Of a stretch of 64,000 nt of DNA, positions 2,955-45,942 are shown piece by piece. Made by a program: the position numbers and the translations under genes. The stretch spans positions 3,046 through 67,045 of the forward strand of contig CAWIFL010000013.1 in the NCBI GenBank assembly GCA_963835535.1, written 5' to 3'. Positions within the stretch are counted from its first letter, which is position 1, and each line of letters opens with the position of its first letter. This DNA is from an uncultured Gemmatimonadales bacterium. Lineage in GTDB: Bacteria; Gemmatimonadota; Gemmatimonadetes; Gemmatimonadales; JACORV01. Below the pieces are notes generated by a model that was not told the origin of the DNA, did not search any database, and saw nothing but the letters and a program-made list of their open reading frames with translations.

Positions 2955-3308
2955 TCATGCCTCCGCCCTGCCCCAGGGATACTCCGCTTCGAAGACCGCG
3001 TCGAACGCGTACACGCCCTCGAAGTCCTCCAGCTTGTCGTCCGGCTGGCGGACGAGCAGGCCCGCGTCGATGAGCGCGTACACGATCTCGCCGAAATCGC
3101 CGGTGGAGCAGATGCCCCAGTGCGCGAGCACGGTGCGGGCGAGGAGGCCGTACTGCTCGAGCGCCAGCTCCCGGCAGGCGTGCGACAGCTCCTCGCCGGT
3201 GACGTGGCGGCGCTCGGGGAGGCGCTGCTGGATGTGCTCCAGCGCCGCGAGCACGAAGAGGAAGGCGCGCGGATGGAACCGGCCCGCCCTGGGCGCGATG
3301 CGCGCCAT
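2955..3308 (-). CDS. small conserved protein, TIGR04138 (Minf_1886)-like, function unknown
   Basis: Tail of ORF 2955..4838(-): MARIAPRAGRFHPRAFLFVLAALEHIQQRLPERRHVTGEELSHACRELALEQYGLLARTVLAHWGICSTGDFGEIVYALIDAGLL..DFEGVYAF. ATG at 3308. An alternative TTG at 3338 would overlap the lon stop (TTGA). Confidence 0.6.
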   Translation of the reverse strand: MARIAPRAGRFHPRAFLFVLAALEHIQQRLPERRHVTGEELSHACRELALEQYGLLARTVLAHWGICSTGDFGEIVYALIDAGLLVRQPDDKLEDFEGVYAFDAVFEAEYPWGRAEA

Positions 3309-3334: not shown

Positions 3335-5806
3335 TCAACGGGCGCCCGTCTCCAGGGGCCGCGCGGCCACGCGCTCCGGCCGGCCGCGGCGCGGCTGGGC
3401 CGCGACCGCCTCGGTCACCGTCGCCGGGAGCAGCGCCGCCTCCAGCACCTCGTCCACGGTCTCCACCAGCCGGATCTCCAACGCTTTCCGAACCTCCTCC
3501 GGGAGCTCCGCTACGTCGGCCGCGTTCCGCGCCGGCACCAGGACCAGCCGGATGCCGGCGCGCTCGGCCGCTATCAACTTCTCTTTGATGCCCCCCACCG
3601 GCAAGACATGGCCGCGCAGGGTGAGCTCCCCGGTCAGCGCCAGGTCGTGCCGCACCGGCCGGCCGGAGAAGAGCGAGGCGAGGGCCGTGGCGATCGCCAC
3701 GCCCGCCGACGGGCCGTCCTTGGGCACCGCGCCGGCCGGCACGTGGAGGTGCACGTCCACCTCCTTGAAGGCCGACGGGGGCACCCCGAGACCGGGCGCC
3801 TTGGCGCGGATCAGGCTCCACGCCGCCTCGGCGGATTCCTTCATCACGCCGCCGAGCTGGCCGGTGATGGTGAGGGTGCCCGTGCCGGCCATCTTCAGCG
3901 CCTCGATGAACAGGATGTCCCCGCCCGTGGGCGTCCACGCGAGCCCGGTGGAGATCCCCACCTCCGGCTCGCGGCCCGCGACCTCCGGAAGCACCTTCGG
4001 CGCTCCGAGCCGCTTGTGGACCGTGCGCGGCGTGACGTGCGCCCGCGCGGTCTTCCCGCTCACCACGTCCACCACGATCTGGCGCAGCACGTGCTGGATC
4101 TCGCGCTCGAGCTGCCGCACCCCGGCCTCGCGCGTGTACTCCGCGATGATGGACTGCAGCGCCGCCGCGCCCACGACCACGTGCCGCCCCTCGAGCCCCG
4201 TCTCCTTCAGCTGGCGGGGCACCAGATAGCGGCGCGCGATCTCCAGCTTCTCGCGCGGCGTGTACCCCGGCAGCTCCAGCACCTCCATCCGGTCGATCAG
4301 CGGCGGCGGCACGGTCGCCAGCGTGTTGGCGGTCGCGATGAACATCACGTCCCTGAGGCTGAACGGCACCTCGACGTAGTGGTCCACGAAGGTGTGGTTC
4401 TGCGCGGGGTCCAGGACCTCGAGCAGGGCCGACGTCGGGTCGCCCCGGAAATCGGCCCCGAGCTTGTCCACCTCGTCGAGCATGAAGACCGGGTTCCGCG
4501 TCGCCGCCCGCTGCAGCAGCTGGATGATGCGGCCGGGCAGCGCGCCGACGTAGGTGCGGCGATGCCCGCGGATCTCGGCCTCGTCGCGCATCCCGCCCAG
4601 CGCCATCCGCACGAACGAGCGCCCGAGCGCCTCGGCGATGCTCTGCCCCACGCTCGTCTTGCCCGTGCCCGGCGGCCCCACGAAGCAGAGGATGCTCCCG
4701 TGCGCCTCGGGGTTCAGGAACCGCACCGCGAGGTACTCGATGATGCGGTCCTTCACCTTCTCGAGGTCGAAGTGGTCCCTGTCCAGGATCTCGCGCGCGT
4801 GCTGGATGTCGAGCCGGTCCTCCGTCAGCACGCTCCACGGCAGCCCCGCCAGCACCTCGACGTAGGTGTGCGCCACCTGGTACTCGGCCGACTGCGGCGA
4901 CATCCGCCCCAGCCGCTCCAGCTCGCGCCGCCCCGCCTTGAGCGCTTCCTCCGAGGGCTTCGCCGCCTCGAGCTTCTTGAGCAGCTCGCCGGCCTCCCCC
5001 TCGGGCCCGCCGTCGCCCAGCTCCTCCTGGATGATCTTCAGCTGCTCGCGCAGCACGTACTCCCGCTGGTGCTCGTCGAGGCGCGTCTTGACCTTCTCGG
5101 AGATCTGCGAGCCGACCTCCAGGACCCGCAGCTCCTGGCCGATCAGCGCGGAGAGGCGCTCGAGCCGCGCCGCGACATCCCCGGTGCCGAGCAGCTCGGC
5201 CTTCGCCTCCACCGCCAGGTCGATGTTCGCCGCGACGAAGTCCGCCAGCTTGCCCGGATCGGTGATCCCGTCGAGCACCTCCCGCAGCTCCCCGGACAGG
5301 TTCGGCGTCATTTCGATGACCTTCTCCATCTCCGCGGTCACCGAACGCCGCAGCGCCTCGGTGCGGAGCGGGTCCGCCACCGTGCTCGCGATGCCCTCGA
5401 AGCGCGCGCTCAGTCCGTCCTCGCCGCTCGCCTGCACGTCCAGCAGCCGCACCCGGTCCATCCCCTGCACCAGCATCCGGAGCGTGCCGTCCCCCAGCCG
5501 GAGCAGCCGCACCACGGTGCTCAGGGTGGCCGCGTCGTAGAGCGCGTCGGGGGCGGCGGTGTCGAGCACGCCCTGCGGCAGCTCCTCGCCCTGCGTCCGG
5601 ACCACGCCGAGCAGCAGGTGCTTGTGCGTCTCCACGATCCGGTTCACCGCCGCGACCAGCTGCGGCGTGGTGACGGAGACGGGCACGACGACGTGCGGGA
5701 AGACGACCAGCTGCGACAGCGCCAGCACGGGGAGGCGCTCGGGAAGGCCCGGGTCCGTCGCGGGGGCGCCGGGGGGTGCGGCGGCGCTCACGGGCGGCCC
5801 GCTCAC
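3335..5806 (-). CDS. lon: ATP-dependent endopeptidase Lon (LonA type)
   Basis: ORF 3335..6127(-). LON N-domain (LPVLALSQLVVFPH), Walker A (GPPGTGKTS) and protease domain with PKDGPSAG are present. The true start is probably GTG 5806 (GTGA overlap with the hsp20 stop) or GTG 5791. The 107 upstream codons of the track ORF overlap hsp20 and are Arg-rich junk. Confidence 0.95.
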   Translation of the reverse strand: MSGPPVSAAAPPGAPATDPGLPERLPVLALSQLVVFPHVVVPVSVTTPQLVAAVNRIVETHKHLLLGVVRTQGEELPQGVLDTAAPDALYDAATLSTVVRLLRLGDGTLRMLVQGMDRVRLLDVQASGEDGLSARFEGIASTVADPLRTEALRRSVTAEMEKVIEMTPNLSGELREVLDGITDPGKLADFVAANIDLAVEAKAELLGTGDVAARLERLSALIGQELRVLEVGSQISEKVKTRLDEHQREYVLREQLKIIQEELGDGGPEGEAGELLKKLEAAKPSEEALKAGRRELERLGRMSPQSAEYQVAHTYVEVLAGLPWSVLTEDRLDIQHAREILDRDHFDLEKVKDRIIEYLAVRFLNPEAHGSILCFVGPPGTGKTSVGQSIAEALGRSFVRMALGGMRDEAEIRGHRRTYVGALPGRIIQLLQRAATRNPVFMLDEVDKLGADFRGDPTSALLEVLDPAQNHTFVDHYVEVPFSLRDVMFIATANTLATVPPPLIDRMEVLELPGYTPREKLEIARRYLVPRQLKETGLEGRHVVVGAAALQSIIAEYTREAGVRQLEREIQHVLRQIVVDVVSGKTARAHVTPRTVHKRLGAPKVLPEVAGREPEVGISTGLAWTPTGGDILFIEALKMAGTGTLTITGQLGGVMKESAEAAWSLIRAKAPGLGVPPSAFKEVDVHLHVPAGAVPKDGPSAGVAIATALASLFSGRPVRHDLALTGELTLRGHVLPVGGIKEKLIAAERAGIRLVLVPARNAADVAELPEEVRKALEIRLVETVDEVLEAALLPATVTEAVAAQPRRGRPERVAARPLETGAR

Positions 5807-15696: not shown

Positions 15697-18399
15697 ATGA
15701 CCGAAGCGACGACGCTGTCCCCGCAGTACAGTGCCACGGACGTCGAGGCGGCGCTCTACGCCGACTGGGAGGCCCGCGGATACTTCACGCCCTCCAGCGC
15801 TCCCGGGGCGCGGCCGTACGTCATCGTCATCCCGCCGCCCAACGTCACGGACGTGCTCCACATGGGGCACGGGCTGAACAACACCGTCCAGGACGTCCTG
15901 ATCCGCTTCGAGCGCATGCGCGGCCGCGCGGCGCTCTGGGTGCCGGGGACGGACCACGCCGGCATCGCCACGCAGAACGTGGTCGAGAAGCTGCTCGCCG
16001 CCGAGGGCAAGACGCGGTTCGACCTCGGGCGCGAGGCCTTCGTCGCGCGGGTGTGGGAACACGTGAACGCCAAGCGCGGCGTCATCCTCGATCAGCTGCG
16101 GGCCATCGGCTGCTCGTGCGACTGGACGCGCACGCGGTTCACCCTCGACCCCGAGATGAGCCACGCGGTGCGTGAGACCTTCGTGCAGCTCTGGGAGGAG
16201 GGGCTCATCTACCGCGGCTACCGGGTGATCCACTGGTGCCCGCGGTGCCACACGGCGCTCTCGGACGAGGAGGCGGAGCACGAGGACGTCGAGGGCGCGT
16301 TCTACCACATCCGCTACCCGCTCGCCGACACCGAGGGATACATCACGGTGGCCACGACGCGGCCCGAGACGCTGCTCGGCGACGTCGCCGTAGCGGTGAA
16401 CCCGAGCGACCCGGCGCGCGCGGCGTACGTCGGCCGGCACGTGGTCCTCCCGATCGCGGAGCTGGAGATCCCGATCATCGCCGACGAGCACGTGGAGGCC
16501 GGCTTCGGCACCGGGTTCGTGAAGATCACGCCCGCGCACGACGCGGACGACTTCGAGGTGGGCAAGCGGCACAACCTCGCCACGCCGATCGTGATGACGC
16601 CCGAGGCGCGGATGGCCGACGCGGCGCTGAACGGCAAGGCCGGCGGCCGCGTGCCCGCGCCCATCTTCGGGATGGACCGCTTCGAGGCGCGCAAGGCGAT
16701 CCTGGAGCTGCTGAAGGCGCGCGGCCTGCTGGAGAAGGTGGAGAGCCGCCTGCACGCCGTCCGCCACTGCTACCGCTGCGACACGGTGGTCGAGCCGCGG
16801 CTGAGCGACCAGTGGTTCGTGACGATGGAGCCGCTCGCGGCGCCGGCGCTCGAGGCGTACCGGAAGGGCGAGGTCCGCTTCATCCCGGAGCGGCGCGGCG
16901 TCGAGTTCGAGCAGTGGCTGACCGGGATCCGCGACTGGAACATCTCGCGCCAGCTCTGGTGGGGCCACCGCATCCCGGTCTGGTACTGCGACAAGTGCGG
17001 CCTGCAGAGCGCGTTCCGCGAGGACCCGCAGGCGTGCCCCGCCTGCGGCGCGGCCCTGCGCCAGGACGAGGACGTCCTCGACACCTGGTTCAGCTCCTGG
17101 CTCTGGCCGTTCTCGACCCTCGGCTGGCCCGAGCAGACCGCCGACCTCGCGCGCTTCTACCCCACCGACGTCCTGGTCACCGCCCCCGAGATCATCTTCT
17201 TCTGGGTGGCGCGGATGATCATGGCCGGGCTCCACTTCCTGGGGCGCGTGCCGTTCCATACGGTGTACCTGCACGGCACGGTACGCGACACGCACCACGT
17301 CAAGATGTCGAAGTCGCTCGGCAACGGGATCGACCCGCTCGAGGTGGTGCGGCGGTTCGGCGCCGACGCCCTGCGCTTCGCGGTCACGAGCGGGCTGGCC
17401 GTAGGGACGGACATCGTCCTCGATCCCGGCGACCTCGAGACGTCGTTCGCCTCGGGGCGGAACTTCGCCAACAAGCTCTGGAACGTCGGCCGCCTGCTGC
17501 TGTCGTCGCTGGGCGAGGACGCGGTGCGGCCGCTGGCCGACGTCCCGCCCGGCGAGCTCAACCTCGCGGACCGCTGGATCCTGTCGCGGCTGGCGCGCGC
17601 GGTGCGGGAGACGACGGAGCACCTCGAGAAGTTCCGGCTCAACGACGCCGTCGGGACGCCGTACCACTTCCTCTGGGACGACTTCGCCGACTGGTACCTG
17701 GAGGAGGTCAAGCCGCGGCTCCGGGGCGAGGCGGCGGGCGCCGAGGCGGCGCGGTCGGTGGCGGCGCACGGCTTCGAGACGGTGCTCCGCCTGCTGCATC
17801 CGGCGATGCCGTTCATCACCGAGACGCTCTACCGCCGTCTCCCCGGCCGCGCCGACGCGTCCATCGTCGTCGCGCCGTGGCCCGCGGCGGACGCGGGGCG
17901 CGACGACCCCGACGCCGAGCGCGACTTCGCGTTCGTGCAGGCGCTGGTGGATGCGGTCCGCGAGGTGCGGGCGGACTACGGCGTCAAGCCGGGTCAGGAG
18001 CTGCCCGCCTTCCACGCCAGGACCTCGTCGCGGCAGCGGAAGGCGCTGGCGACCGAAGACGACATGATCCGACGGCTGGCACGGCTCAAGCAGCTCGACT
18101 TCGTCGGGGACCCGTCGGTGCACGGCAAGGTCGGCGCGCACGTCGTTCTCCCGGATGGCGCCGAGCTCTTTGTCGGGCTCGGCGAGGCGATCGACGTGGC
18201 CAGGGAATGCGCCCGGCTCGGCTCCGAGCTGCAGCGGCTCGAGCGCCAGATCGCGGGCCTCAAGACCAAGCTCGCCAACCCCGGCTTCACGGGCCAGGCG
18301 CCTGCGGAGGTCGTGGAGCGCGAGCGCACCAAGGAGCGCGAGTGGACGGTCAAGCGGGAGGCGCTCGCCTCCAAGCTCGCCGCGCTCGGCTGCGCGTAG
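15697..18399 (+). CDS. valS: valine--tRNA ligase
   Basis: ORF 15685..18399(+). Motifs: PPPNVTDVLHMGH (HIGH), KMSKS (VKMSKSLGN), CP1 editing domain, C-terminal coiled coil. ATG 15697 is preferred; GTG 15685 is possible. Confidence 0.95.
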   Translation: MTEATTLSPQYSATDVEAALYADWEARGYFTPSSAPGARPYVIVIPPPNVTDVLHMGHGLNNTVQDVLIRFERMRGRAALWVPGTDHAGIATQNVVEKLLAAEGKTRFDLGREAFVARVWEHVNAKRGVILDQLRAIGCSCDWTRTRFTLDPEMSHAVRETFVQLWEEGLIYRGYRVIHWCPRCHTALSDEEAEHEDVEGAFYHIRYPLADTEGYITVATTRPETLLGDVAVAVNPSDPARAAYVGRHVVLPIAELEIPIIADEHVEAGFGTGFVKITPAHDADDFEVGKRHNLATPIVMTPEARMADAALNGKAGGRVPAPIFGMDRFEARKAILELLKARGLLEKVESRLHAVRHCYRCDTVVEPRLSDQWFVTMEPLAAPALEAYRKGEVRFIPERRGVEFEQWLTGIRDWNISRQLWWGHRIPVWYCDKCGLQSAFREDPQACPACGAALRQDEDVLDTWFSSWLWPFSTLGWPEQTADLARFYPTDVLVTAPEIIFFWVARMIMAGLHFLGRVPFHTVYLHGTVRDTHHVKMSKSLGNGIDPLEVVRRFGADALRFAVTSGLAVGTDIVLDPGDLETSFASGRNFANKLWNVGRLLLSSLGEDAVRPLADVPPGELNLADRWILSRLARAVRETTEHLEKFRLNDAVGTPYHFLWDDFADWYLEEVKPRLRGEAAGAEAARSVAAHGFETVLRLLHPAMPFITETLYRRLPGRADASIVVAPWPAADAGRDDPDAERDFAFVQALVDAVREVRADYGVKPGQELPAFHARTSSRQRKALATEDDMIRRLARLKQLDFVGDPSVHGKVGAHVVLPDGAELFVGLGEAIDVARECARLGSELQRLERQIAGLKTKLANPGFTGQAPAEVVERERTKEREWTVKREALASKLAALGCA

Positions 18400-19775
18400 G
18401 CTTCGCGCTCGCGGCGTTCGTCGCGTACTGCGGCTGCGCGTCCACCGGCGACCCGCCGGGCGGTCCTCCGCGCGCCACGCCGCCCGTCCTCCTCGCCAGC
18501 GTGCCCGAGTCCGGCGCCGTGCTCGCCGTGCCGCCGCGTCACGTCGAGCTGAGGTTCGACGAGGTCATCGGCGAGCGCATCGCCGCGCCGCAGCCCACCC
18601 TCGCGGGCGCGGTGCTCGTTTCGCCCGCCACGGGGCCCGTGAGCGTGGACTGGCACCGCAATCACATCACCATCTCGATCAAGGGCGGGTTCCGCCCGCA
18701 GCGCATCTACCGTGTGGAGCTGCTTCCCGTCGTCGTGGACCTCCACCAGAACAGGATGAAAAAGGCCCGGACCATCGTCTTCTCGACCGGCCCGGCGATC
18801 CCCTCGGCGACCCTCGCCGGCACCGTCGTGGACTGGACGGGTGGTCGCGCGGCGAACGGCGCGCTGGTCCAGGCCATGCTGCTGCCCGACTCCCTCCCCT
18901 ATCTCGCGCTGGCCGATTCGGTGGGGAATTTCTCCCTCCGCGCGATGCCGCCCGGCGACTACCTGGTGTACGGCGTCCTCGACCAGAACAACAACCGGCG
19001 CCGGGACCCGCGCGAGGCGTTCGACACCGCGCGCGTCGCGCTCACCGACTCGGCGCTGGTCGGGCTGTACGCGTTCACCCACGACACGATCGGGCCGCGG
19101 ATCAGGTCGGCGGATCCGGTGGACAGCATCACCGTGCGCATCACGTTCGACCGCCCCGTGAGTCCCGCCGTGGCCGTGGACACCTCGATGGTGCACGTGA
19201 GCCCGCTGGCCGATACGACGCAGACGGTCGCGCTGCTCACGGTGCTCACGACGGCCGCGTACGACAGCGCCGCCAAGATCGAAGCGGCCGCCAGGGCCGC
19301 CGCGCAGGCGGCGAGGGACAGCGCGACCCGGGCCGCGGCGGCGGCGCGCGACACCTCCCACCGCGCGGCCGCTCCACAGCCCGCGGCCGCGCGGCCGCCG
19401 GTCCGGCCACCGCCGCTGGGCGCGCTGCCGCGGCACGACTCGCTGCCCGCGGCGCGACACGACACCAGCCGCGCGACGAAGATGCTGGCCGAGCGCCCCG
19501 CCCCCAGCGACACGCGGGTCGTGCGCTTCGCCGCCCCGCTGGAGGCCGGCGTTCGATACGCGATCACGACCGCGAACGTGGTGGGGCTCACCGGAGTCAA
19601 GTCGACCCAGGGCCGCACCACCTTCACGGTGCCGCGGCCGCGGCCCACGCGGCCCGCCGCGGACTCCACGCGCCGTGCCCCGACCGACACCGCCGCCGCG
19701 GGCCGCGCGCAACCCGACACGGTCGCCGCGCGCCGCGACACCGTGCCGGCTCCCCTTCCGGTCAAACCACGGTGA
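18342..19775 (+). CDS. secreted/lipoprotein-like protein with Ig-like (SbsA/Big_5-like) N-domain and Ala/Pro-rich C-terminal half
   Basis: Tail of ORF 16236..19775(+). GTG 18342 is preceded by AAGGAG (18331-36, 5-nt spacer). The signal-like N-terminus is MDGQAGGARLQARRARLRVGFALAAFVAYCGC. The start overlaps the valS 3' end by 58 nt. Confidence 0.65.
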   Translation: MDGQAGGARLQARRARLRVGFALAAFVAYCGCASTGDPPGGPPRATPPVLLASVPESGAVLAVPPRHVELRFDEVIGERIAAPQPTLAGAVLVSPATGPVSVDWHRNHITISIKGGFRPQRIYRVELLPVVVDLHQNRMKKARTIVFSTGPAIPSATLAGTVVDWTGGRAANGALVQAMLLPDSLPYLALADSVGNFSLRAMPPGDYLVYGVLDQNNNRRRDPREAFDTARVALTDSALVGLYAFTHDTIGPRIRSADPVDSITVRITFDRPVSPAVAVDTSMVHVSPLADTTQTVALLTVLTTAAYDSAAKIEAAARAAAQAARDSATRAAAAARDTSHRAAAPQPAAARPPVRPPPLGALPRHDSLPAARHDTSRATKMLAERPAPSDTRVVRFAAPLEAGVRYAITTANVVGLTGVKSTQGRTTFTVPRPRPTRPAADSTRRAPTDTAAAGRAQPDTVAARRDTVPAPLPVKPR

Positions 19776-21187
19776 CCGACCCGCGCCGCCGGCTGCCGTC
19801 GGTGGACCGCCTGCTCAAGGAGAGCGCCGTCGCCCCCCTCGCCGCGGGCGTCCCGCGGAGCGCGCTCGTCCGCGCGGTGCGGAGCGCCTTGGGCGACGCG
19901 CGCGCGGCGCCGGAGAAAGCGCCCGCCGACGGCGCGGCCTGGGCCGCCGCCGTCCTCCGCGCGTTGGAGTCGGCGACGCGCCCGACGCTGCGCCGCGCGG
20001 TCAACGCCACGGGCGTGGTGTTGCACACCAACCTCGGTCGCGCCCCGTTGAGCGAGGCGGCGCTCGCCGCCGTCCGCGAGGCGGCGCGCGGCTACAGCAC
20101 GCTCGAGTACGACGCCGAACGCGGCCGGCGCGGCGACCGCCACGTGCACTGCGCCGGCCTGCTCACCGAGCTCACCGGCGCGCCGGCCGCGCTGATGGTG
20201 AACAACGCCGCCTCGGCGCTCCTCCTGGCCCTGGCGACCGCGGCGGCCGGCGGCGACGTGATCGTCTCGCGCGGCGAGCTGATCGAGATCGGCGGCGGGT
20301 TCCGGATCCCGGAGATCCTCGAGAAGAGCGGGGCGCGGCTCCTCGAGGTCGGCACGACCAACCGCACGAAGCTGGCCGACTACGAGAAAGCGCTCAAAGA
20401 CAGAGGCACAGAGGCACAGGGGCACAGGGGCACAGGCAAGCCAGCCGCGCGTCTGCCGGTCGCCATCCTCAAGGTCCATCGCTCGAACTTCCGGCAGGAG
20501 GGGTTCGTCGCCGAGGCGTCGCTGGAGGAGCTGGTGGCGCTCGGGCGGAAGCGCCGGGTGCCGGTGATCTACGACCTGGGCGGCGGACTGATGGTGGATC
20601 TCTCCGCCGACGGCCTCGACGGGGAGCCGCTGCTGCCGCGGGCCGCGAAGAGCGGCGCCACGGCCGTCGTCGCGTCGGGCGACAAGCTGCTGGGCGGCCC
20701 GCAGGCCGGCATCCTCCTCGGCACCGCGGCGTTCGTCGAGCGCTGCCGCACCAATCCGCTGGCGCGGGCGATCCGCGCCGACAAGCTCACGATCGCCGCC
20801 CTCTCGGCGACGCTGGCGCTCTACCGCGACACGGCCATGGCGCGGCGCGAGGTCCCGGTCCTGCGGATGCTGACGGAGCCGCGCTCGGTCCTGGTCGCGC
20901 GCGCCGAGCGCCTGGCCGCGACGCTGCCACCCGCGGCGCACGCCGTGGTGACGGCGACGCGCGCCGCGGTCGGCGGCGGGGCCTTCCCCGGCCTCGAGCT
21001 GGCCAGCGCCGGCGTCGCCCTCGCCCCGGAGGGGCTCTCCGCCGCGGGGCTGGCCGAGCGCCTCCGACTCGCCGCGACGCCGGTCGTCGCGCTGGTCACG
21101 GGCGGCCGCGTCGTCCTCGACGTGCGCACGATCGCGCCCGAGGACGAGCGGACGGTCGCAGACGCCGTCGCCGCGGCGCTTATCTAG
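19772..21187 (+). CDS. selA: L-seryl-tRNA(Sec) selenium transferase
   Basis: Tail of ORF 18155..21187(+) from VTDPRRRLPSVDRLL. Motifs: NATGVVLHTNLGRAPL, NNAASALLL, TTNRT, KVHRSNF, SGDKLLGGPQAG (PLP Lys). GTG 19772 overlaps the upstream stop (GTGA). Confidence 0.9.
   Translation: MTDPRRRLPSVDRLLKESAVAPLAAGVPRSALVRAVRSALGDARAAPEKAPADGAAWAAAVLRALESATRPTLRRAVNATGVVLHTNLGRAPLSEAALAAVREAARGYSTLEYDAERGRRGDRHVHCAGLLTELTGAPAALMVNNAASALLLALATAAAGGDVIVSRGELIEIGGGFRIPEILEKSGARLLEVGTTNRTKLADYEKALKDRGTEAQGHRGTGKPAARLPVAILKVHRSNFRQEGFVAEASLEELVALGRKRRVPVIYDLGGGLMVDLSADGLDGEPLLPRAAKSGATAVVASGDKLLGGPQAGILLGTAAFVERCRTNPLARAIRADKLTIAALSATLALYRDTAMARREVPVLRMLTEPRSVLVARAERLAATLPPAAHAVVTATRAAVGGGAFPGLELASAGVALAPEGLSAAGLAERLRLAATPVVALVTGGRVVLDVRTIAPEDERTVADAVAAALI
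20401..20438 (+). repeat. octanucleotide tandem array CAGAGGCA CAGAGGCA CAGGGGCA CAGGGGCA CAGGCA inside selA
   Basis: Read directly: 4.75 copies of an 8-nt unit, in frame, encoding ..DRGTEAQGHRGTGK... It is visibly more A-rich than the flanks. Confidence 0.9.
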
Positions 21188-24018: not shown

Positions 24019-24997
24019 CGCGCTCGTGGCGCTGGCGTGCGCGCTGATCGCGACGCCGGCCGCCGCTCAGTCGCCCTCCGCCGGCCCGCCGCTCGATTCC
24101 CTGGTCGTCCGGCTCGCGAACATGAGTGCCGTCACCGGCCTCGAGGACGCGATGGCCGAGGAGCTCGCCGCGGCGCTGCCCGGCGCGGTGACGGACGCCG
24201 CCGGGAACGTGCTCGCGATCCGCGGCAGCGGCGACCCGACCCGGGTCGCGCTCTGCCCGATGGACGAGATCGGCTACGTGGTCGGCGCCGTCACGCCGGA
24301 GGGCTATCTGACCCTGCGCCGCGTGGGCGCGACCTTCATGGGCCCGCTGTACGACCAGTTCCTCGAGGGCCAGCGCGTCACCGTGTTCGGCAGCCGCGGC
24401 CCGCTCCCCGGCGTCGTGGGCGTGCGCTCGATCCACCTGACGCGCGGGCGCCCGTCCGCGGCCGACGAGCCGTTCAATCTCGACAACGCGTACGTGGACG
24501 TGGGCGCGACCTCGGCGGCGGGCGTCGAGGCCCTCGGCGTGGGCCTGCTCGCGCCGGTCACGCGCGCCAAGCGGGCACACCGCTACGGCACCGACCTCGT
24601 CGCCGCGCTCGACGTTTCGGCCCGCGCCTCCTGCGCCGCCCTGCTCGACGCGGTCCTGCGCCTCCCCGCGGGCGGCGGCCGCGGCACCGCCGTGGCCGCG
24701 TTCACGCGCCGGCGGAACCTCCGGTGGGACGGCGGCTCGTTCGTGGTGATCTCCCGCGCGCAGGGAGCGGCAGCCTCCGACGTCGTCCTGCTCGGCGAGA
24801 CCGCCGCGGCCGACTCCCTCGGTGCGGGCGCGGTCGTGACCGGGGGCGACTCGCTCCCCGCCGCGCAGGGCTTCCAGGCCGCGACCGCCTGGAGCCTGCC
24901 CACCCGCTACGCCCGCACGCCGGTCGAGACCGTGTCACTCAAGGACGTCGCGGTCCTCGCGGACAGGCTCGTGGCGTTCCTGGGAGGGCGGCCATGA
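23999..24997 (+). CDS. secreted M42-peptidase-like paralog, apparently catalytically degenerate
   Basis: ORF 23999..24997(+). Signal peptide: MRSRPCSALVALACALIATPAAAQ. The fold-level pattern resembles the next gene, but the metal-ligand boxes are altered (ALCPMDEIG instead of AH.DEIG; no EE box). Confidence 0.65.
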   Translation: MRSRPCSALVALACALIATPAAAQSPSAGPPLDSLVVRLANMSAVTGLEDAMAEELAAALPGAVTDAAGNVLAIRGSGDPTRVALCPMDEIGYVVGAVTPEGYLTLRRVGATFMGPLYDQFLEGQRVTVFGSRGPLPGVVGVRSIHLTRGRPSAADEPFNLDNAYVDVGATSAAGVEALGVGLLAPVTRAKRAHRYGTDLVAALDVSARASCAALLDAVLRLPAGGGRGTAVAAFTRRRNLRWDGGSFVVISRAQGAAASDVVLLGETAAADSLGAGAVVTGGDSLPAAQGFQAATAWSLPTRYARTPVETVSLKDVAVLADRLVAFLGGRP

Positions 24998-26121
24998 CGC
25001 ACGGACGCGCGGACGCACGGACGCACGGCGCGTGGGTGGCCGCCGCCGTCCTCGTGGCGTGCCTGACGCCCGGCGCGGCGCCCGCCCAGCAGCCGATCGG
25101 CCTCGGCGAGGCGCGCGACATCGTGTCGCGCCTGGTCGAGACCTACGGCGTCTCCGGCCACGAAGGCCCGGTGCGCGAGGCCGTCATCAAGCTCCTGCCG
25201 GCGTGGGCGAATCCGACCATCGATTCCGCGGGGAACATCCTGGTCCGTGCCGGCGCGGGCGACCCGCTCACCGTCTACGTCGCGCACCTCGACGAGATCG
25301 GCTTCGCCGTCACGGCGATCCGGGAGAACGGGCAGCTGGAGCTGAGGCAGCTGGGCGGGTTCTTCCCCTCCCTGTTCGAGGCGGAGCCGGCGCTCGTGCA
25401 CACGGCGAACGGGATCGTGCCGGCCGTCTTCATGCCGCGCGACAGCGTCGGCCGCTCACCCGCGCGGAACCCCGGCGCCCTGCGCGCCGATCCCGGCACG
25501 GGGAGCCGCGCCGCCACCGAAGCGCTGGGCATCAGGGTCGGCGACGCGGTGACGATGCCGAAGTCCTTCGCCGGCCTCGCGGGGACGCGCGCCACCGGGC
25601 GCTCGTTCGACGACCGGGTCGGCTCGACCGCGCTGCTCCTCGCCGTGCGGCACCTCGACCCGCGGCGGCTCCGGCACGCGGTGCTGTTCGTCTGGTCCAC
25701 CCGGGAGGAAGTGGGGCTCGACGGCGCCCGGTTCGTCGCGGAGCACGTGGGGACGTCCGAGCATCCGGCGCGCGTGTACGCCATCGACACCTTCGTCTCC
25801 TCCGACGCGCCGCTGGAGATCAAGACCTTCGCCGACGCGCCGCTGGGCGGCGGCGCCGTGGTCCGGGCGGTGGACAACAGCTCGGTGACGCCGCCCGCGC
25901 TGGTGGACTCGCTGCTGGCGCTGGCGCGCGCGCGGCACATCCCGCTGGTCGCGGGCACGACCAACGGCGGGAACGACGGCTCGACCTTCACGCGCTTCGG
26001 CGTGCCCGACGTGGGGCTCGGGTGGCCGCTGCGCTACGCCCATTCGCCGGCGGAAGTGATCGATCTCCGGGACCTGGTCTCGCTCGCCGACGTCATCCAA
26101 CTCACTGCGGAGCGATGGTAA
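24994..26121 (+). CDS. M42 family metallopeptidase (glutamyl aminopeptidase/endoglucanase-like) with signal peptide
   Basis: Tail of ORF 24037..26121(+) from MTHGRADARTHGAWVAAAVLVACL. Motifs: VAHLDEIGF, SFDDRVG, STREEVGLDGA, YAHSP. ATG 24994 overlaps the upstream stop (ATGA). Confidence 0.85.
   Translation: MTHGRADARTHGAWVAAAVLVACLTPGAAPAQQPIGLGEARDIVSRLVETYGVSGHEGPVREAVIKLLPAWANPTIDSAGNILVRAGAGDPLTVYVAHLDEIGFAVTAIRENGQLELRQLGGFFPSLFEAEPALVHTANGIVPAVFMPRDSVGRSPARNPGALRADPGTGSRAATEALGIRVGDAVTMPKSFAGLAGTRATGRSFDDRVGSTALLLAVRHLDPRRLRHAVLFVWSTREEVGLDGARFVAEHVGTSEHPARVYAIDTFVSSDAPLEIKTFADAPLGGGAVVRAVDNSSVTPPALVDSLLALARARHIPLVAGTTNGGNDGSTFTRFGVPDVGLGWPLRYAHSPAEVIDLRDLVSLADVIQLTAERW
24997..25028 (+). 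repeat. octanucleotide tandem array ACGCACGG ACGCGCGG ACGCACGG ACGCACGG at codons 2-12 of the M42 gene
   Basis: Read directly from the sequence. It encodes THGRADARTHG. The same unit occurs at 45857-45888 on the other strand. Confidence 0.9.
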
Positions 26122-41217: not shown

Positions 41218-41354
41218 CGGTCGGCTCCGGAGAGGCGGGTGCACGAGACCGCGGGATCCACCAGGATTACGTCCGGCGGCGCGCTCGTGCTGCACGCCGC
41301 ACTCATACCCCACCACGGATGAAAAGTACGTCCGGCGCGGCGATCAAGCACCAC

Positions 41355-41975
41355 CTAGCGCGCCCGGACGGGATTTCTGAGCACGCCGACGCCCGGGACC
41401 TCGACTTCGACCACGTCGCCGTCCACGAGGGGCCCGATCCCGGCGGGCGTGCCGGTCGCCACCAGATCCCCCGGCTCCAGCGTCATGACCCGCGAGATGA
41501 ACGCGAGCAGCGCCGGGATGCCGAACACCATGTCCGCGGCGCGTCCCCGCTGGCGCTCCACCCCATTCACCCGGCAGACGACTTCAAGGGCCGAGAAGTT
41601 AAAGGACGCGTCCACCGGCTGGAGCCTCGGCCCCATCGGGCAGAACGTGTCGAACCCCTTGGCCCGGGTCCACTGCCCGTCGGACTTCTGGAGATCGCGC
41701 GCCGTCACGTCGTTGACGCAGGTGAGCCCCAAGACCGCGGCACGCGCCGCCGCCTCGTCGCCCCGGCAGAGCCGCGTCCCGATGATCACGCCGATCTCGC
41801 CCTCGTGCTCGACCCGCCGCGACATGTCGGGCAGGAGGATCGGCTCGCCGTCGAAGACGACGGACGAGGGAGGCTTGAGGAACAGGAGGGGCTCCTTCGG
41901 CACCTCGTTCCCCAGCTCCTTCGCGTGCTCGACGTAGTTGCGACCGACACAGACGATCTTGCCGGGTCTCCGCAT
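41355..41975 (-). CDS. fumarylacetoacetate hydrolase (FAH) family protein
   Basis: Tail of ORF 41355..42083(-). GAGGAG precedes ATG 41975. N-terminus: MRRPGKIVCVGRNYVEHAKE. Motifs: HEGEIGVIIG, NDVTARDLQ, KGFDTFCPMGP, ATGTPAGIG. Confidence 0.85.
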   Translation of the reverse strand: MRRPGKIVCVGRNYVEHAKELGNEVPKEPLLFLKPPSSVVFDGEPILLPDMSRRVEHEGEIGVIIGTRLCRGDEAAARAAVLGLTCVNDVTARDLQKSDGQWTRAKGFDTFCPMGPRLQPVDASFNFSALEVVCRVNGVERQRGRAADMVFGIPALLAFISRVMTLEPGDLVATGTPAGIGPLVDGDVVEVEVPGVGVLRNPVRAR

Positions 41976-41995
41976 CGGACGGCTCCTCAGGTGGA

Positions 41996-42153
41996 GGCGT
42001 GAGAGGTGAGACGTGAGAGGAACAAGTGAGAGGGTAAGATGCGTGAGAGGTGAGAAGGAGAGGCGTGAGAGGTCCCCTCTCACGCCCTTGCCCTCTCACG
42101 TCTCACGCCGTTCGCCCTCTCACTTCTCACCTGTCCCCCTCACTTCTCACGCC
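41996..42153. repeat. 158-nt imperfect palindrome built from GTGAGAGG (left arm) and CCTCTCAC (right arm) units
   Basis: GTGAGAGG is at 41999, 42013, 42026, 42043 and 42065. CCTCTCAC is at 42076, 42092 and 42116, plus shorter (T)TCTCAC/CCCTCAC copies out to 42150. The perfect central stem is GGCGTGAGAGG (42062-72), loop tcc, CCTCTCACGCC (42076-86). The outermost 10-11 nt are also complementary. Confidence 0.85.
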
Positions 42154-44653
42154 GTGAAGTTCGAAGAACTCCCTGATCTGCCTGATCAGTTCGTGCCACG
42201 GCCCCATGAACCTGCGTCGCGTCCGGCAGTCCCTCCAGGAGCGCGCCGCCGTACCGCTTCCGCAGCACCCGCGGGTCCAGCAGCACCACCACGCCGACGT
42301 CCGTCCGCGAGCGGATGAGCCGGCCGAAGCCCTGCTTGAGCTTCAGCGCGGCGAGCGGCACCAGGTACTCGTTGAACGGGTCGCCGCCGGACGCCTCGAT
42401 GGCCTCGCAGCGCGCGGCGGTGAGCGGCTCGGTCGGCACGCGGAACGGCAGCTTGGCGATCACCAGGGCGCGGAGCGCGAGCCCGGGCACGTCCACGCCT
42501 TCCCAGAACGAGTCCGTGCCCAGGAGGATGGCCGAGCCGGCGTCGCGGAAGCGGCGCAGCAGCTGGTCGCGCGGCGCGTCCCCCTGCACCAGCAGCGGCC
42601 AGCGGCCGGCGACGTCGGCGCGCGCGCCGAGCGCGGCGGCCGCCTGCCGCAGGGCGCGGTGGCTCGTGAAGAGGACGAACAGCCCGCCGTCGGAGGCGTG
42701 CGCGACGTCGGCCGCGATCTCGGCGACCCGCGCGCCGTGTCCCTCCGCGTCGTCCCGCGGCTCGGGCAGGTCGTCGGGCACGACGAACAGGCACTGGTCG
42801 CGGTAGTTGAAGGGCGACGGCAGCACCTCGCGCACCCCTTCGCGCGAGGGCGGCAGGTCGAGGCCGAGGCGCCGCGCGAGGAACTCGAAGGAGCCCCCGG
42901 TCGCCAGCGTCGCGCTGGTCAGGGTGATCGTCTCGACCCGGTCGAAGAGCATCTCCTTGAGGAGCGGCGCCAGCTCCAGCGGCACGGCGGCGAGCGCGAC
43001 GTGCGCGCCGCCGCGCCGCTCGATCCACCGCACCGTCGGGGGCAGGCCGGCCGGGGGCCGGAGCGTCGTGCGCACCGCGTCGCGCGCCGCCTCCAGACGG
43101 TTGGAGAGCCCGCGCAGCTCGCCCGCCAGCGACTGGATCCGGTCCGCCCCTTCCTCCGACCCCAGCCGCTCCACGAGGGCCACCACGGCCTCCCGGACCA
43201 GGCCGAGCGCGTAGCCGAAGTTGTCGAGCGCGTCGCCGAGCCCGCCGCCGGCGGCCGACCAGATGGGGTCGGCGGCGAACGCGTCGCCCAGGCGGACGAC
43301 GTTGTCGGCCTTGCCGGCCAGGTAGGCGTCGAGGATCCGGAAGAGCAGCTCGGCGCTGCGCCGCGCGTCCGCCAGCGCCGGGCGGAGGCGCGATTCGATC
43401 TGCTGCATGGCCGTCTCGCGCAGGGGCTCGTCCGCCTCGGCCGCGAGCGCGCCCCGCAGCGCCGGCAGGACGCCGCGGTTGCCACGCTCCAGCCGCGACA
43501 GCATCCGCTCCACGCCGCGCGACGTGGCCTGCATGCCGAGGTGCGTGGCGGCCGTGTCCTCCAGGTGGTGCGCCTCGTCGAGCACGAGGCGGCGATACGG
43601 CGGGAGCACCGCCGCCTCCTCGAAGTTCCCCTGGGCGCGCCGCACGGCGAGATCGCTCGCCAGGAGGTGGTGGTTCACCACCACCACGTCCGCGTCGGCG
43701 GCGCGGCGCCGCGCCTCGAAGACGAAGCACCCGTCGAAGTGCGGACAGCGCAGCCGGGTGCACAGGTCCGACTCGGCCGCGACCTCGTCCCACACCTCGG
43801 AGCTGGGCGTGAACGACAGGTCCGAGAGGCTGCCGTCCGACGTGTGCGCCGCCCACGACGCAATGGCTTCCAGCTCGTCGCGGCGGTCCGGCTCGAGGAG
43901 CGTGCCGACGCCCCGCCGCGCCTGCTCCAGTCGCGTCAGGCAGACGTAGTTGCGCCACCCCTTGAGCAGCGCGTAGCGCACCGGACGGTCCTCGGTGCCG
44001 AGGGCGCGGGCCAGCAGCGGGAGGTCCTTCCCGACCAGCTGCTCCTGCAGGTTGATGGTGTTCGTGGAGACGATGGTGCGCTCGCCGTTCACCACGGCCC
44101 ACCGGATCGCCGGCACGAGGTACGCGAAGCTCTTCCCGATCCCGGTCCCGGCCTCGAGCACCGCGATCGAGCCGTCGTTGTACGCGTCGGCGATGTAGGC
44201 CGCCATGTCGCGCTGGGCCTGGCGGTCCTCGTGCGCGCCCAGCTCGCGCGCCACGGGGCCCGCGGGCGCGAGGAGCCGCGCAACGGCGACGGCATCGAGC
44301 GGCTCGGTGCCGCGCGGCTTCGGCACCTCGACGACGACGTACAGCTCGTCGGCCCGGTTGTCCACGATCCCGAAGCCGATGCCGCCGTCGTGCAGGCGCA
44401 CCGCGACGTCGAGATCGGCGTTCGAGGGCTCGAGCAGCCCGCTCGGGTGGTTGTGGAGCACCATCTGCCCGCGGGACGCGACGCCCGGCAGGGCGAGCAC
44501 CGCGTCCACGGTACCGCGCGCGACGGGCTCCGCTCCCCGCACCGTGCCATCGGCGGCGACGTCGGCGACGAACGAAACCTCGCGGCCGCCGGCCTCCGCG
44601 ATCGCCGCGGCGATGGCGGAGCGGGCCGCGGCGCCGAGCCGCGCGGTGCTCAC
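42140..44653 (-). CDS. fusion protein: RadC-like JAB/MPN domain + DinG/Rad3-family ATP-dependent DNA helicase
   Basis: Tail of ORF 42140..44950(-) from VSTARLGAAARSAI. JAB motif: MVLHNHPSGLLEPSNADLDV. Helicase motifs: LEAGTGIGKS (Walker A), VLDEAHHL (DEAH), LTSATL, GTDSFWEGVD, QGFGRLIRS. GTG 44653 overlaps the upstream stop (GTGA). The last ~22 codons look frameshifted; the alternative end is 42127. Confidence 0.85.
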   Translation of the reverse strand: MSTARLGAAARSAIAAAIAEAGGREVSFVADVAADGTVRGAEPVARGTVDAVLALPGVASRGQMVLHNHPSGLLEPSNADLDVAVRLHDGGIGFGIVDNRADELYVVVEVPKPRGTEPLDAVAVARLLAPAGPVARELGAHEDRQAQRDMAAYIADAYNDGSIAVLEAGTGIGKSFAYLVPAIRWAVVNGERTIVSTNTINLQEQLVGKDLPLLARALGTEDRPVRYALLKGWRNYVCLTRLEQARRGVGTLLEPDRRDELEAIASWAAHTSDGSLSDLSFTPSSEVWDEVAAESDLCTRLRCPHFDGCFVFEARRRAADADVVVVNHHLLASDLAVRRAQGNFEEAAVLPPYRRLVLDEAHHLEDTAATHLGMQATSRGVERMLSRLERGNRGVLPALRGALAAEADEPLRETAMQQIESRLRPALADARRSAELLFRILDAYLAGKADNVVRLGDAFAADPIWSAAGGGLGDALDNFGYALGLVREAVVALVERLGSEEGADRIQSLAGELRGLSNRLEAARDAVRTTLRPPAGLPPTVRWIERRGGAHVALAAVPLELAPLLKEMLFDRVETITLTSATLATGGSFEFLARRLGLDLPPSREGVREVLPSPFNYRDQCLFVVPDDLPEPRDDAEGHGARVAEIAADVAHASDGGLFVLFTSHRALRQAAAALGARADVAGRWPLLVQGDAPRDQLLRRFRDAGSAILLGTDSFWEGVDVPGLALRALVIAKLPFRVPTEPLTAARCEAIEASGGDPFNEYLVPLAALKLKQGFGRLIRSRTDVGVVVLLDPRVLRKRYGGALLEGLPDATQVHGAVARTDQADQGVLRTSRREK

Positions 44654-45942
44654 GTCTTGAGTTCGCGCTTGCGCGCCGCGGGGAAGAGCACGTTGTTGAG
44701 AATGAGCCGGTAGCCCGGCGATGTCGGATGCAGCGACAGGTCGGTCGGCGGACTCCCGACCTGGTGCTGCGGGTCCTCGGGGTCGTGGCCGCCCAGGTAG
44801 GTCCAGGTCCCGCGGCCCAGGTCGCCGTGGATGTACTTCACCCACGGCGCGCCCGCCTCGTCGGCCAGGACGATGTCGGCGGCCTTGAGGGTGCGGCGCG
44901 TGAAGCTCGTGGTGATGCCGTAGAAGTCCGGGATCACCTGCCGGTGACACTGCACCAGCATCGTCGGCACGGGATCAATCTTGGCGCTGAAGTTGAACAG
45001 CGCGAACGCGCCGAGCGGCTGGCGCAGCCCCGGGTTGTTGACCTGGTGCCCGTCGATGTCCGAGAAGGCCGGGATCGCCGGGTTCTTCTCGAGGTGCGCG
45101 TCCTTGCACGCCAGCGCCTGGGTCCAGTCGAGCTTGGCGTCGGCGTCGGGATCCATCGGCGTGCCGTCGGCGAACTCCGCGGCGATGTCCACGTCGTGCG
45201 CGGCCAGGGCCAGCTCCAGGGTCTCGGTCGCCGTGCACATCGCGAACAGGAAGCCGCCGCCGTCCACGAAGGCGCGGATGCGGCGGGCCACCGCCTTCTT
45301 CAGGGCGGGCACGTCGTCGAACGAGAGGGTGCGCGCCACCGCCTGGTTCTCCTGCACCATGTCGGCGAGCCAGGCCGCGCCGGCGTAGGAGAGGTAGAAC
45401 TTGGAGTACTGGCCGGTGAAGTCCTCGTGGTGCAGATGCAGCCAGTCGAAGTCGGCCAGCCGCCCGCCCAGGACTTCGGTGTCCCAGACGCGCGTGAAGG
45501 GGATGTCGGCGTAGCGGAGCGCGAGCGTCACCGCGTCGTCCCAGGGCGGAGCGAAGGGCGGCGAGTAGATGGCGACGCGCGGCGCCTTCTCGAGCGGCAC
45601 GGCGTCCATGTTGCCCTGCTCGATGGTGCCCCGGATGTCGAGCACGTCGGCGTCCGACACGCTCAGGGCGGCGACGCCCGCCAGCGTGGCGGCGCGCCGC
45701 GCGATCCCGTCGTCCGGGATGAGGAACGACCCCCCGCGATAGTTGAGCAGCCACTCGGTGTGGCCGCCGCGCTTGACGGCGTCGTACGCGAGGCCGTAGG
45801 CCTTGAGGTGGTTGGTCTGCTCCTCGTCCATCGGCACGAGCAGGGACGCCGCACCTCCGTGCGTCCGTGCGTCCGTGCGTCGGTGCGTCCAGGCGAGGGC
45901 GCCCGCGCCGGCCATCGCGCCGAGGAAGTCCCGCCGCTTCAC
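44650..45942 (-). CDS. Tat-signal secreted protein of unknown function (GATase1-like fold suspected)
   Basis: Tail of ORF 44650..46989(-) from VKRRDFLGAMAGAGALAW (RRxFL twin-arginine motif). The conserved-looking body includes EEQTNHLKAYGLAYD..WLLNYRGGSF..GGFLFAMC. GTG 45942 overlaps the TPR gene stop (GTGA). The fold assignment is a recollection, not a search result. Confidence 0.65.
   Translation of the reverse strand: MKRRDFLGAMAGAGALAWTHRRTDARTHGGAASLLVPMDEEQTNHLKAYGLAYDAVKRGGHTEWLLNYRGGSFLIPDDGIARRAATLAGVAALSVSDADVLDIRGTIEQGNMDAVPLEKAPRVAIYSPPFAPPWDDAVTLALRYADIPFTRVWDTEVLGGRLADFDWLHLHHEDFTGQYSKFYLSYAGAAWLADMVQENQAVARTLSFDDVPALKKAVARRIRAFVDGGGFLFAMCTATETLELALAAHDVDIAAEFADGTPMDPDADAKLDWTQALACKDAHLEKNPAIPAFSDIDGHQVNNPGLRQPLGAFALFNFSAKIDPVPTMLVQCHRQVIPDFYGITTSFTRRTLKAADIVLADEAGAPWVKYIHGDLGRGTWTYLGGHDPEDPQHQVGSPPTDLSLHPTSPGYRLILNNVLFPAARKRELKT
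45857..45888 (-). repeat. octanucleotide tandem array; minus strand reads ACGCACCG ACGCACGG ACGCACGG ACGCACGG just after the Tat signal
   Basis: The plus strand reads CCGTGCGT CCGTGCGT CCGTGCGT CGGTGCGT. It encodes ..THRRTDARTHGG.. in the same phase as the array at 24997-25028. Confidence 0.9.

Follow-up and report, generated by a model that had tools for sequence, protein, structure and literature searches.

The window analyzed here, a 64,000-nt stretch of contig CAWIFL010000013.1 from an uncultured Gemmatimonadales bacterium, contains between the genes for a DinG-type helicase and an FAH-family hydrolase a non-coding 158-base DNA palindrome of 7-nt units, which read GTGAGAG in one arm and CTCTCAC in the other. 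This element (41996-42153) belongs to a repeat family with copies dispersed over Gemmatimonadales genomes, and the arms co-vary within each copy. The array was acquired within a small clade, at a junction of genes that ancestrally overlapped or lay 8 to 27 nt apart; there it took the place of the final few codons of the helicase gene, which now takes its stop codon from the repeat. The sequence of the element and even its unit turn over much faster than the flanking genes. The explanation that we favor, with a probability of roughly 0.55, is that of a neutral or selfish DNA-level foldback heptamer repeat.

The foldback element and its relatives in Gemmatimonadales

The element is an imperfect palindrome of degenerate 7-nt units, with 61 Watson-Crick and 4 G-U pairs when set against its own reverse complement. 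The arm reading GTGAGAG on the plus strand (41996-42072) carries five exact copies of GTGAGAGG, at 41999, 42013, 42026, 42043, and 42065, besides GTGAGAC, GTGAGAA, and GTAAGAT variants, and forms the 3′ C-rich arm in the minus-strand mRNA. The arm reading CTCTCAC on the plus strand (42076-42153) carries three exact copies on the minus strand (equal to CCTCTCAC; 42076, 42092, and 42116) and forms the 5′ G-rich arm of the mRNA, directly continuing the helicase coding sequence. The two arrays of the same unit thus stand on opposite strands, 3 nt apart at the center, where a perfect 11-bp stem (42062-42086; 42062-42072 pairing with 42076-42086) encloses a 3-nt loop (42073-42075). At the outer ends, the 15 nt at 41996-42010 and those at 42139-42153 are 93% complementary. 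An earlier note on this DNA, which used only the sequence, had reported the five left-arm units with their complementary right arm, the central stem and loop, and the pairing of the outer ends, and unit counts and coordinates confirmed each of these. The long imperfect hairpin that it proposed was borne out by RNA folding: each strand forms one long hairpin of about −116 kcal/mol (−115.5 and −116.8 kcal/mol), compared to −74 ± 4.9 kcal/mol for dinucleotide shuffles (z, −8.5 and −8.9), and none of 200 shuffles equaled the element.

Within the window, all eight exact GTGAGAGG/CCTCTCAC octamers lie inside the element, whereas shuffled sequences had a mean of 2.6, scattered. The hexamers GTGAGA/TCTCAC occur 13 times in the 158 nt of the element and 8 times in the remaining 63.8 kb. 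Tandem Repeats Finder reported a period of 7, with 10.3 copies at 41999-42073 and 5.1 copies at 42116-42150. The element is the longest inverted repeat of the window, no other coming close, and the G+C content falls from ~72% in the window to ~60% in the element.

A scan of 185,579 species genomes (one per bacterial or archaeal species) for three GTGAGAGG within 30 nt yielded at least 120 matching loci, which were taken as 8-kb sequences (L001 to L120). About 28 of the loci among the matches listed belong to Gemmatimonadales metagenome-assembled genomes (MAGs); the other matches listed are mostly from Bacteroidota (Saprospiraceae, Chitinophagaceae, Prevotella), with some from Planctomycetota, Verrucomicrobiota, Chloroflexota, and others. 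In Gemmatimonadales a forward array is often followed directly by a reverse array, giving a total of 140 to 190 nt. Up to four copies per MAG were present among the matches listed, and there is one copy in the window. With inverted-array relatives at many unrelated loci, the element is not unique to this locus; it was uniqueness that the earlier note had named as grounds for giving up its idea.

Ten foldback elements, including that of the window, could be aligned end to end. Seven of them, from non-orthologous loci in at least five MAG species, are 139 to 143 nt long and have unrelated flanks and a common block plan: four units, a spacer of ~6 nt, two units, a spacer of ~9 nt, one unit, a loop of 8 to 16 nt, and the mirror image of these blocks. 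The window copy, L121, and L099 are longer variants with one extra block. The GTGAG core of the units is invariant, and the spacers vary in sequence among copies and are complementary within each copy. In the RNAalifold structure of the seven elements, 92.6% of the cells were paired, compared to 39 to 66% with slid partners. Changes on both sides of a pair were found in 10 cells, compared to 4.7 ± 1.7 in shuffles (3 of 500 shuffles reached 10), and the covariation score was equaled in 2 of 500 shuffles. A covariance model built from the seven elements matched 42006-42150 with 76 bits (E ~1e-13) as its sole match in the 64 kb, and it also matched L121, L099, and other foldbacks. Near-identical copies were not found among the aligned elements, the best pairwise identity being 0.84, and the identity of copy pairs within a genome (0.71 to 0.80) was not above that of pairs between genomes. 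The genes adjoining two copies in L093 encode Ppx/GppA, DeoC, EutN, and a rhomboid protein, those between the two copies are ordinary metabolic genes and not mobility genes, and no transposase or RAYT gene was found beside the copies examined.

The sequence of the window stems from a peat metagenome population, 20 DNA runs containing 56 to 72% of its 31-mers. Several contigs of these runs that have unrelated flanks and a coverage like that of the orthologous contig match the arms of the element, and the summed depth was ~260 in the right arm compared to ~40 in the flanks. The depth of the arm and the unrelated flanks of these contigs indicate that the family is multicopy in the peat population. 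Literature searches for palindromic repeats of Gemmatimonadetes returned nothing relevant, and those for the unit string returned primers only. At one further locus (L051, 4665-4842), the C-rich arm (4814-4842) lies in the signal-peptide-coding start of the downstream open reading frame (ORF) (..LIALTSHFSPLTAQG..) and the G-rich arm lies just upstream of the start codon, which shows that a foldback arm can enter coding sequence.

Acquisition and turnover at the helicase-FAH junction

Of 80 FAH-encoding metagenome loci that were fetched, 32 had kept the helicase gene upstream and were thus syntenic. In most of these 32 loci the helicase stop and the FAH start overlap or lie 8 to 27 nt apart (gaps of −7 to 27 nt), as expected of translationally coupled genes. 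A palindromic array at this junction was found only in the closest relatives: L121 (84% nucleotide identity, GTGAGAG units, 157-nt array), L109 (a Gemmatimonadales MAG whose orthologous helicase-FAH locus has ~79% nucleotide identity and GTGAGAG units), L127 (GTGATGG units, 168-nt array), and L135 (GGTGATG units, 111-nt array). The orthology with L109 places the source organism of the window in the order Gemmatimonadales. At the conserved helicase C-terminus (...FF.xHGIG..*) the array has displaced the final few codons, and in all four array-bearing relatives the helicase stop is a TGA in one of the first four units. TGA occurs in all three frames of the G-rich arm. In the window the helicase stop (TGA, 42140-42142, minus strand) lies within a repeat unit of the right arm and ends the ORF at 42140-44950 as the window stands; an alternative TGA (42127-42129, minus strand), which is in the frame of the conserved C-terminus GPWHELIRQIREFFELHGVRSEGDR*, also lies within a repeat unit. 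The earlier note was therefore right that the right arm overlaps the last helicase codons and that the element fills the spacer between two co-oriented genes, both of which are on the minus strand.

Immediately downstream of the array, the window and L127 have in common the segment CTCCACCTG(A/G)AGGA, which contains the FAH ribosome-binding site, and the two arrays therefore apparently go back to one insertion. Their units nevertheless differ at two of seven positions on both arms, which requires a concerted change within the element. Comparison of the orthologous regions for presence or absence with target-site duplications, as proposed in the earlier note, revealed presence and absence and no duplication: none was found at the ends of the ten aligned copies or at the filled and empty sites, nor was there a conserved flanking motif.

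The orthologous copies of the window, L121, and L109 are 0.68 to 0.73 identical, compared to values of up to 0.84 for unrelated copies. In peat strains with 93 to 100% identical flanks, 41977-42213 could not be placed at 90 to 92% identity. One strain contig had no differences in 235 positions from 42214 onward but differed by >8% across 41977-42213, a divergence that covers the element and the helicase tail. Another peat allele lacks the inner 94 nt (42019-42112).

Chimeric reads can yield palindromes, and a probable homopolymer error lies 60 nt away from the element in the window, so that a fold-back chimera of sequencing or assembly had to be considered. Since arrays at the same junction recur in independent assemblies from different technologies and samples, namely in L121, L109, L127, and L135 and on contigs of the six peat runs X1, X3, X4, X7, X11, and X15, the element is not an assembly artefact, and such an origin is practically out of the question.

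Known repeat classes and the nature of the element

Among the long simple-sequence repeats of many bacteria, heptamers are the most frequent (Mrazek et al. 2007, as cited in PMC4679880 and PMC4692102). Rehm et al. 2015 (PMC4692102) described 186 GGGAATC arrays in Xanthomonas, 70 as convergent pairs. The mean distance to the upstream ORF is 28 nt, four is the preferred number of units, and most of the arrays are transcribed; at conserved loci they differ between species, and no function is known for them. The same study reported comparable GGGGAYT heptamer repeats for Nostoc and read the four-unit preference in Xanthomonas as a G-quadruplex requirement (PMC4692102). Like the Xanthomonas pairs, the element consists of intergenic, head-to-tail 7-nt units with point variants, arranged as closely spaced convergent arrays of the same unit on opposite strands that are able to form a stem-loop. 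The purine-rich (G-rich) strand is the sense strand and lies within ~50 nt of the upstream stop, which here falls inside the G-rich arm, as it does in most Gemmatimonadales copies; four-unit blocks are present; and the locus is kept while length and sequence vary, as seen in the 94-nt deletion, the peat alleles, and L121, L127, and L135. In contrast to the Xanthomonas units, the Gemmatimonadales unit has no G3 tract, its arms containing GG only, and is hence a poor quadruplex former; the phylum is a different one, the Gemmatimonadales form has a fixed plan of 4-2-1, loop, 1-2-4 with a tight length, and the upstream ORF ends inside the repeat. As all descriptive features except G-quadruplex potential are shared, the element is best filed with the Xanthomonas convergent heptamer pairs.

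Other classes resemble the element less closely. The cyanobacterial STRR heptamers and the TAACTGA repeats of Beggiatoaceae are likewise intergenic and multicopy, with patchy phylogenetic spread and stop-containing units, but they are nearly always direct arrays (with one inverted case in a Beggiatoa genome) and mostly lie just upstream of starts (MacGregor 2015, PMC4679880), whereas the element is defined by two inverted arrays that together make up a single hairpin directly behind a stop codon. REP, BIME, and REPIN sequences are dispersed extragenic imperfect palindromes at gene 3′ ends and inside operons, a REPIN being an inverted doublet that forms a long hairpin (PMC3116915). A REP sequence, however, is a single palindrome of 20 to 40 nt, has a conserved end of the GTAG type, and is linked to a RAYT transposase, whereas the element has arms of tandem 7-nt units and no GTAG or GTGG terminus, and no RAYT was seen, although a genome-wide search was not made. 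Of the features of MITEs, the terminal inverted repeats are present, the whole element being an inverted repeat, as are occupied and empty orthologous sites (the array is missing from most of the 32 syntenic loci and present in four relatives); a target-site duplication is missing from the ten aligned copies and the filled and empty sites, and neither a parent element nor young copies were found, with a best identity of 0.84 and no transposase beside the copies examined. The suggestion of the earlier note that the element is REP/BIME- or MITE-like thus holds in the loose sense of a dispersed repeat and fails in the strict sense. The ERIC/IRU sequences of enterobacteria and the Correia/NEMIS elements of Neisseria are imperfect palindromes of 100 to 160 bp in transcription units that form RNA hairpins and have filled and empty sites, in all of which the element is like them. 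Clearly delimited terminal inverted repeats, target duplications (TA in the case of Correia), and numerous near-identical copies mark the ERIC and Correia elements; for the element of the window, no target duplications and no near-identical copies were found.

In an Rfam scan with permissive E-values on both strands, only sub-threshold matches to miRNA-precursor hairpins were obtained, the best with 49.6 bits compared to a threshold of 137, so that the Rfam check proposed in the earlier note identified no known RNA family at the gathering threshold. An intrinsic terminator was ruled out, as no U-tract follows the stem. An integron attC site was rejected for lack of a GTTRRRY core and on account of the conserved housekeeping synteny, and a CRISPR array was rejected because the units abut in inverted arrangement rather than forming identical direct repeats with unique spacers.

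A further likeness concerns 23S rRNA intervening sequences with an S23p/four-helix-bundle ORF (e.g., Coxiella, PMC4990558), since Bacteroidota loci have a PF05635/TIGR02436 gene between inverted GTGAGAG arrays that would pair as a stem. The element of the window, in contrast, is without cargo and outside rRNA, and no such gene was found in the Gemmatimonadales loci. In three Bacteroidota MAGs, the 23S_rRNA_IVP/TIGR02436 four-helix-bundle gene lies exactly between inverted GTGAGAG arrays (L014, 2569-3112; L026, 5993-6582; L112, about 100-700). The MAG of L112 also contains three cargo-less copies (L041, 633-807, 2832-2971, and 5918-6085) with the same inner inverted repeat CGTAGAGTAC.CCGCTTCGC. 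To judge from this arrangement, the arrays and the gene have the layout of an rRNA intervening sequence outside rRNA and look like autonomous and non-autonomous partners. Cargo-bearing versions were seen only in Bacteroidota, and what they carry is no known transposase gene but one for a four-helix-bundle protein.

Foldback arrays with other units were found at other junctions. L158 has GACAGGA units between the helicase and FAH genes (105-195), L191 has GGCGACN units between the FAH and aminotransferase genes (3091-3257), and L150 has GTGAGAA units after the FAH gene (2446-2550); in L127 a further array of AGGGGTC units (5555-5629) was noted in the same helicase-FAH-aminotransferase operon. 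Each of these four arrays directly follows a stop codon and is independent of the array of the window. In L191 the end of the FAH gene, GGTCGCTTGA, equals one unit of the adjoining array, which suggests seeding from local sequence. The 120 loci taken from the scan (L001 to L120, 8 kb each) contain 134 further arrays of period 7 or 8 with many different units, about one per 7 kb, some of which form inverted pairs (e.g., L017, 2095/2178; L065, 576/655; L080, 4203/4267; L119, 3387/3476). Genomes with GTGAGAG arrays are therefore generally rich in such repeats. From the foldback arrays with other units at other junctions we infer a general process that would work in place.

If the element is a neutral or selfish foldback repeat, it would behave as hairpin-prone DNA: replication slippage would make it grow and change in steps of 7 nt, and template switching in the hairpin would copy one arm onto the other and so keep the palindrome while its details drift. 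At least the 141-nt GTGAGAG form would also have been copied between loci, as implied by the shared plan and the tight length, which are hard to obtain by independent growth. The helicase-FAH transcript would hold a duplex of ~65 bp without a U-tract, which on this model is likely to be an RNase III substrate or a 3′-end-protecting hairpin and not a terminator. Because the insert would fold on itself, the helicase stop at the 5′ foot of the stem would remain close in space to the FAH ribosome-binding site, which follows the 3′ foot at a distance of 9 nt, and this closeness may explain why an insert is tolerated between coupled genes. The consequences of the insert for the stop codon and for mRNA structure are probably by-products. 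Evolution in place is favored by the change of unit within one insertion, by the units peculiar to single loci, and by the lack, in the sequences compared, of target duplications, transposases, and young copies.

Several points weigh against this explanation or parts of it. Copying between loci is implied, yet no enzyme, target duplication, or near-identical copies were found for the copies examined, and the different units at one insertion site would argue against simple copy-and-paste. L151, an about equally distant relative, has no array and is placed inside the array-bearing clade by a poorly resolved neighbor-joining tree, on which one gain plus one loss cannot be told apart from several gains. 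RNA contigs from two soil metatranscriptomes were sparse and had neither coverage of the element nor informative ends, so that our statements on RNA are inferences. Mismatches on the sense strand (40 G-U versus 34 A-C) gave no sign of selection at the RNA level, which may act all the same. The statistics on gene orientation and stop offset rest on crude ORF calls in high-GC DNA. Genes were called with a codon-position G+C rule (GC3 plus GC1>GC2) that works for the Gemmatimonadales loci; the orientation counts across all phyla are confounded and of qualitative use only, some true tails being miscalled (e.g., in L014), and, since stop codons are missing from the C-rich strand, ORFs run through the arrays.

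A true non-autonomous transposable element, i.e., a MITE- or REPIN-like foldback whose hairpin or heptamers are recognized by a trans-acting enzyme and which inserts at or beside TGA stops, would account for the discrete length of 139 to 143 nt and the conserved block plan at unrelated loci of several species, for the filled and empty orthologous sites, and for the multicopy state in the peat community. The upstream stop lies more often in the TGA of the first unit than in that of the second or third (35:22:12; a qualitative result, given the crude ORF calls), and the GTGAGAG arrays that flank the TIGR02436 gene in three Bacteroidota MAGs, with cargo-less versions of the same inner repeat in one of those genomes, also speak for such an element. 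We nevertheless consider it rather unlikely, since target-site duplications and a conserved flanking motif are lacking, the neighbors of the copies examined are housekeeping genes and not transposase genes, within-genome pairs reach only 0.71 to 0.80 identity, with no near-identical copies, one insertion event now has different units in different lineages, and foldback arrays whose units are peculiar to one locus are numerous in the same genomes. It is doubtful, though conceivable, that the heptamer foldbacks are an unrecognized self-propagating hairpin element across Gemmatimonadota, Bacteroidota, and neighboring phyla, whose stem array grows by hairpin-templated copying, which lands on or is seeded by TGA stops and rewrites gene 3′ ends, and whose gene-bearing form carries a four-helix-bundle protein of the 23S intervening-sequence type. 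If this were true, rRNA intervening sequences, the “four helix bundle” gene family, and the excess of heptamer repeats in bacterial genomes would be one system.

Selection of the hairpin as a cis-acting RNA structure of the helicase-FAH operon, in which an RNase III cut or a block to 3′ exonucleases gives the cistrons differing stability or expression, would agree with the very stable hairpin on the transcribed strand, the co-varying arms, and the FAH ribosome-binding site left free just past the stem. Comparable palindromes (ERIC, Correia, and REP) influence the processing and the stability of mRNAs. The finding that most heptamer repeats of Xanthomonas are transcribed (PMC4692102) also fits. 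Such a role is unlikely all the same: most orthologous operons lack the element and their genes are still coupled, both strands fold equally well without a G-U bias of the sense strand (40 versus 34), such elements also occur between convergent genes and beside unrelated genes, the sequence is hypervariable between strains, and the metatranscriptome contigs did not cover the element. That the element regulates its neighbors, either as a series of sites bound by a single-strand- or duplex-binding protein or as a non-B DNA or RNA motif (a two-tetrad G-quadruplex, for instance), seems very improbable to us. The regular 7-nt units with their invariant GTGAG core would suit such a role, and the GAGGTGA within unit pairs would be complementary to the usual 16S rRNA 3′ end. 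Quadruplexes, however, would be weak with GG runs only and would compete with a hairpin of about −115 kcal/mol, phased duplex-binding sites would be too crowded at a 7-bp spacing, and the units differ between lineages at the same site; we know of no candidate protein for the repeat. The four-unit blocks recall the four-unit preference in Xanthomonas (PMC4692102).

Inverted heptamer pairs near stop codons have been reported before and never explained. The locus described here is a natural experiment, in that the same three-gene operon occurs with and without the array, sister lineages have different units in the same insertion, and independent arrays stand at other junctions. It shows that such repeats can be inserted between coupled genes, can donate a stop codon, and turn over fast yet stay palindromic. 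Should the 141-nt architecture reflect real mobility, or should the RNA duplex be processed, this would be a new repeat family in a poorly studied phylum and a handle on the origin of such arrays. For annotation, the practical warning is that gene ends beside these arrays should not be trusted and that assembly breaks and strain variation concentrate in the arrays.

Flanking genes and further repeats of the window

The helicase (936 aa; 42140-44950, minus strand) was assigned by matches to Helicase_C_2 (1e-42) and DEAD, and the FAH-family hydrolase (206 aa; 41355-41975, minus strand) by a match to FAA_hydrolase (1.5e-67); an exact-protein lookup of the latter returned no record. A class I/II aminotransferase gene follows the FAH gene. 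The FAH ribosome-binding site GGAG (41983-41986, minus strand) lies 7 nt before the ATG (41975-41973) and 9 nt past the foot of the hairpin. After the stem, the transcribed strand reads GCCTCCACCTGAGGAG and has no U-tract, and a scan of 41300-42800 detected no terminator-like site and no sigma-70-like promoter, in line with the absence of a T-tract pointed out in the earlier note. A special link between the helicase and the repeat was rejected, since other copies have unrelated neighbors, and a riboswitch or leader for FAH and a small coding ORF were likewise considered and rejected.

Outside the repeat, a run of four C (42213-42216; G4 on the coding strand) has one base more in the window than in related strains (extra base at 42215). 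Compared to the related peat strains, this base puts the last 26 helicase codons out of the conserved frame, which is either an assembly error or a real frameshift. A cluster of single-nucleotide polymorphisms between strains was seen in the helicase tail at 42175-42211. A 50-nt stretch of the helicase gene (42298-42349) had 10 to 60 times the surrounding depth in all peat runs, with many short contigs and unrelated continuations; this peak is probably a highly conserved helicase motif of many community members and not a repeat. In the N-terminal part of the helicase (residues 161 to 193; 44372-44470), a weak match to a RadC-like JAB domain was just above the cut-off (E, 1.2e-4; 22.4 bits).

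Two further arrays of the window, at 24996-25028 and 45856-45890, consist of about four copies of the octamer GACGCACG/TCCGTGCG on opposite strands, 20.8 kb apart. Both are located at 5′ ends of ORFs: one starts 2 nt after an ATGA stop/start overlap, and the other precedes a minus-strand ATG (45831) by ~25 nt. The second array is conserved at the orthologous place in L109 (2480-2525). As an 8-nt unit shifts the reading frame, these arrays could be on/off switch repeats. Another octamer array, ACAGAGGC/ACAGGGGC with 4.6 copies (20400-20436), is located inside a long ORF on the plus strand (18155-21187).

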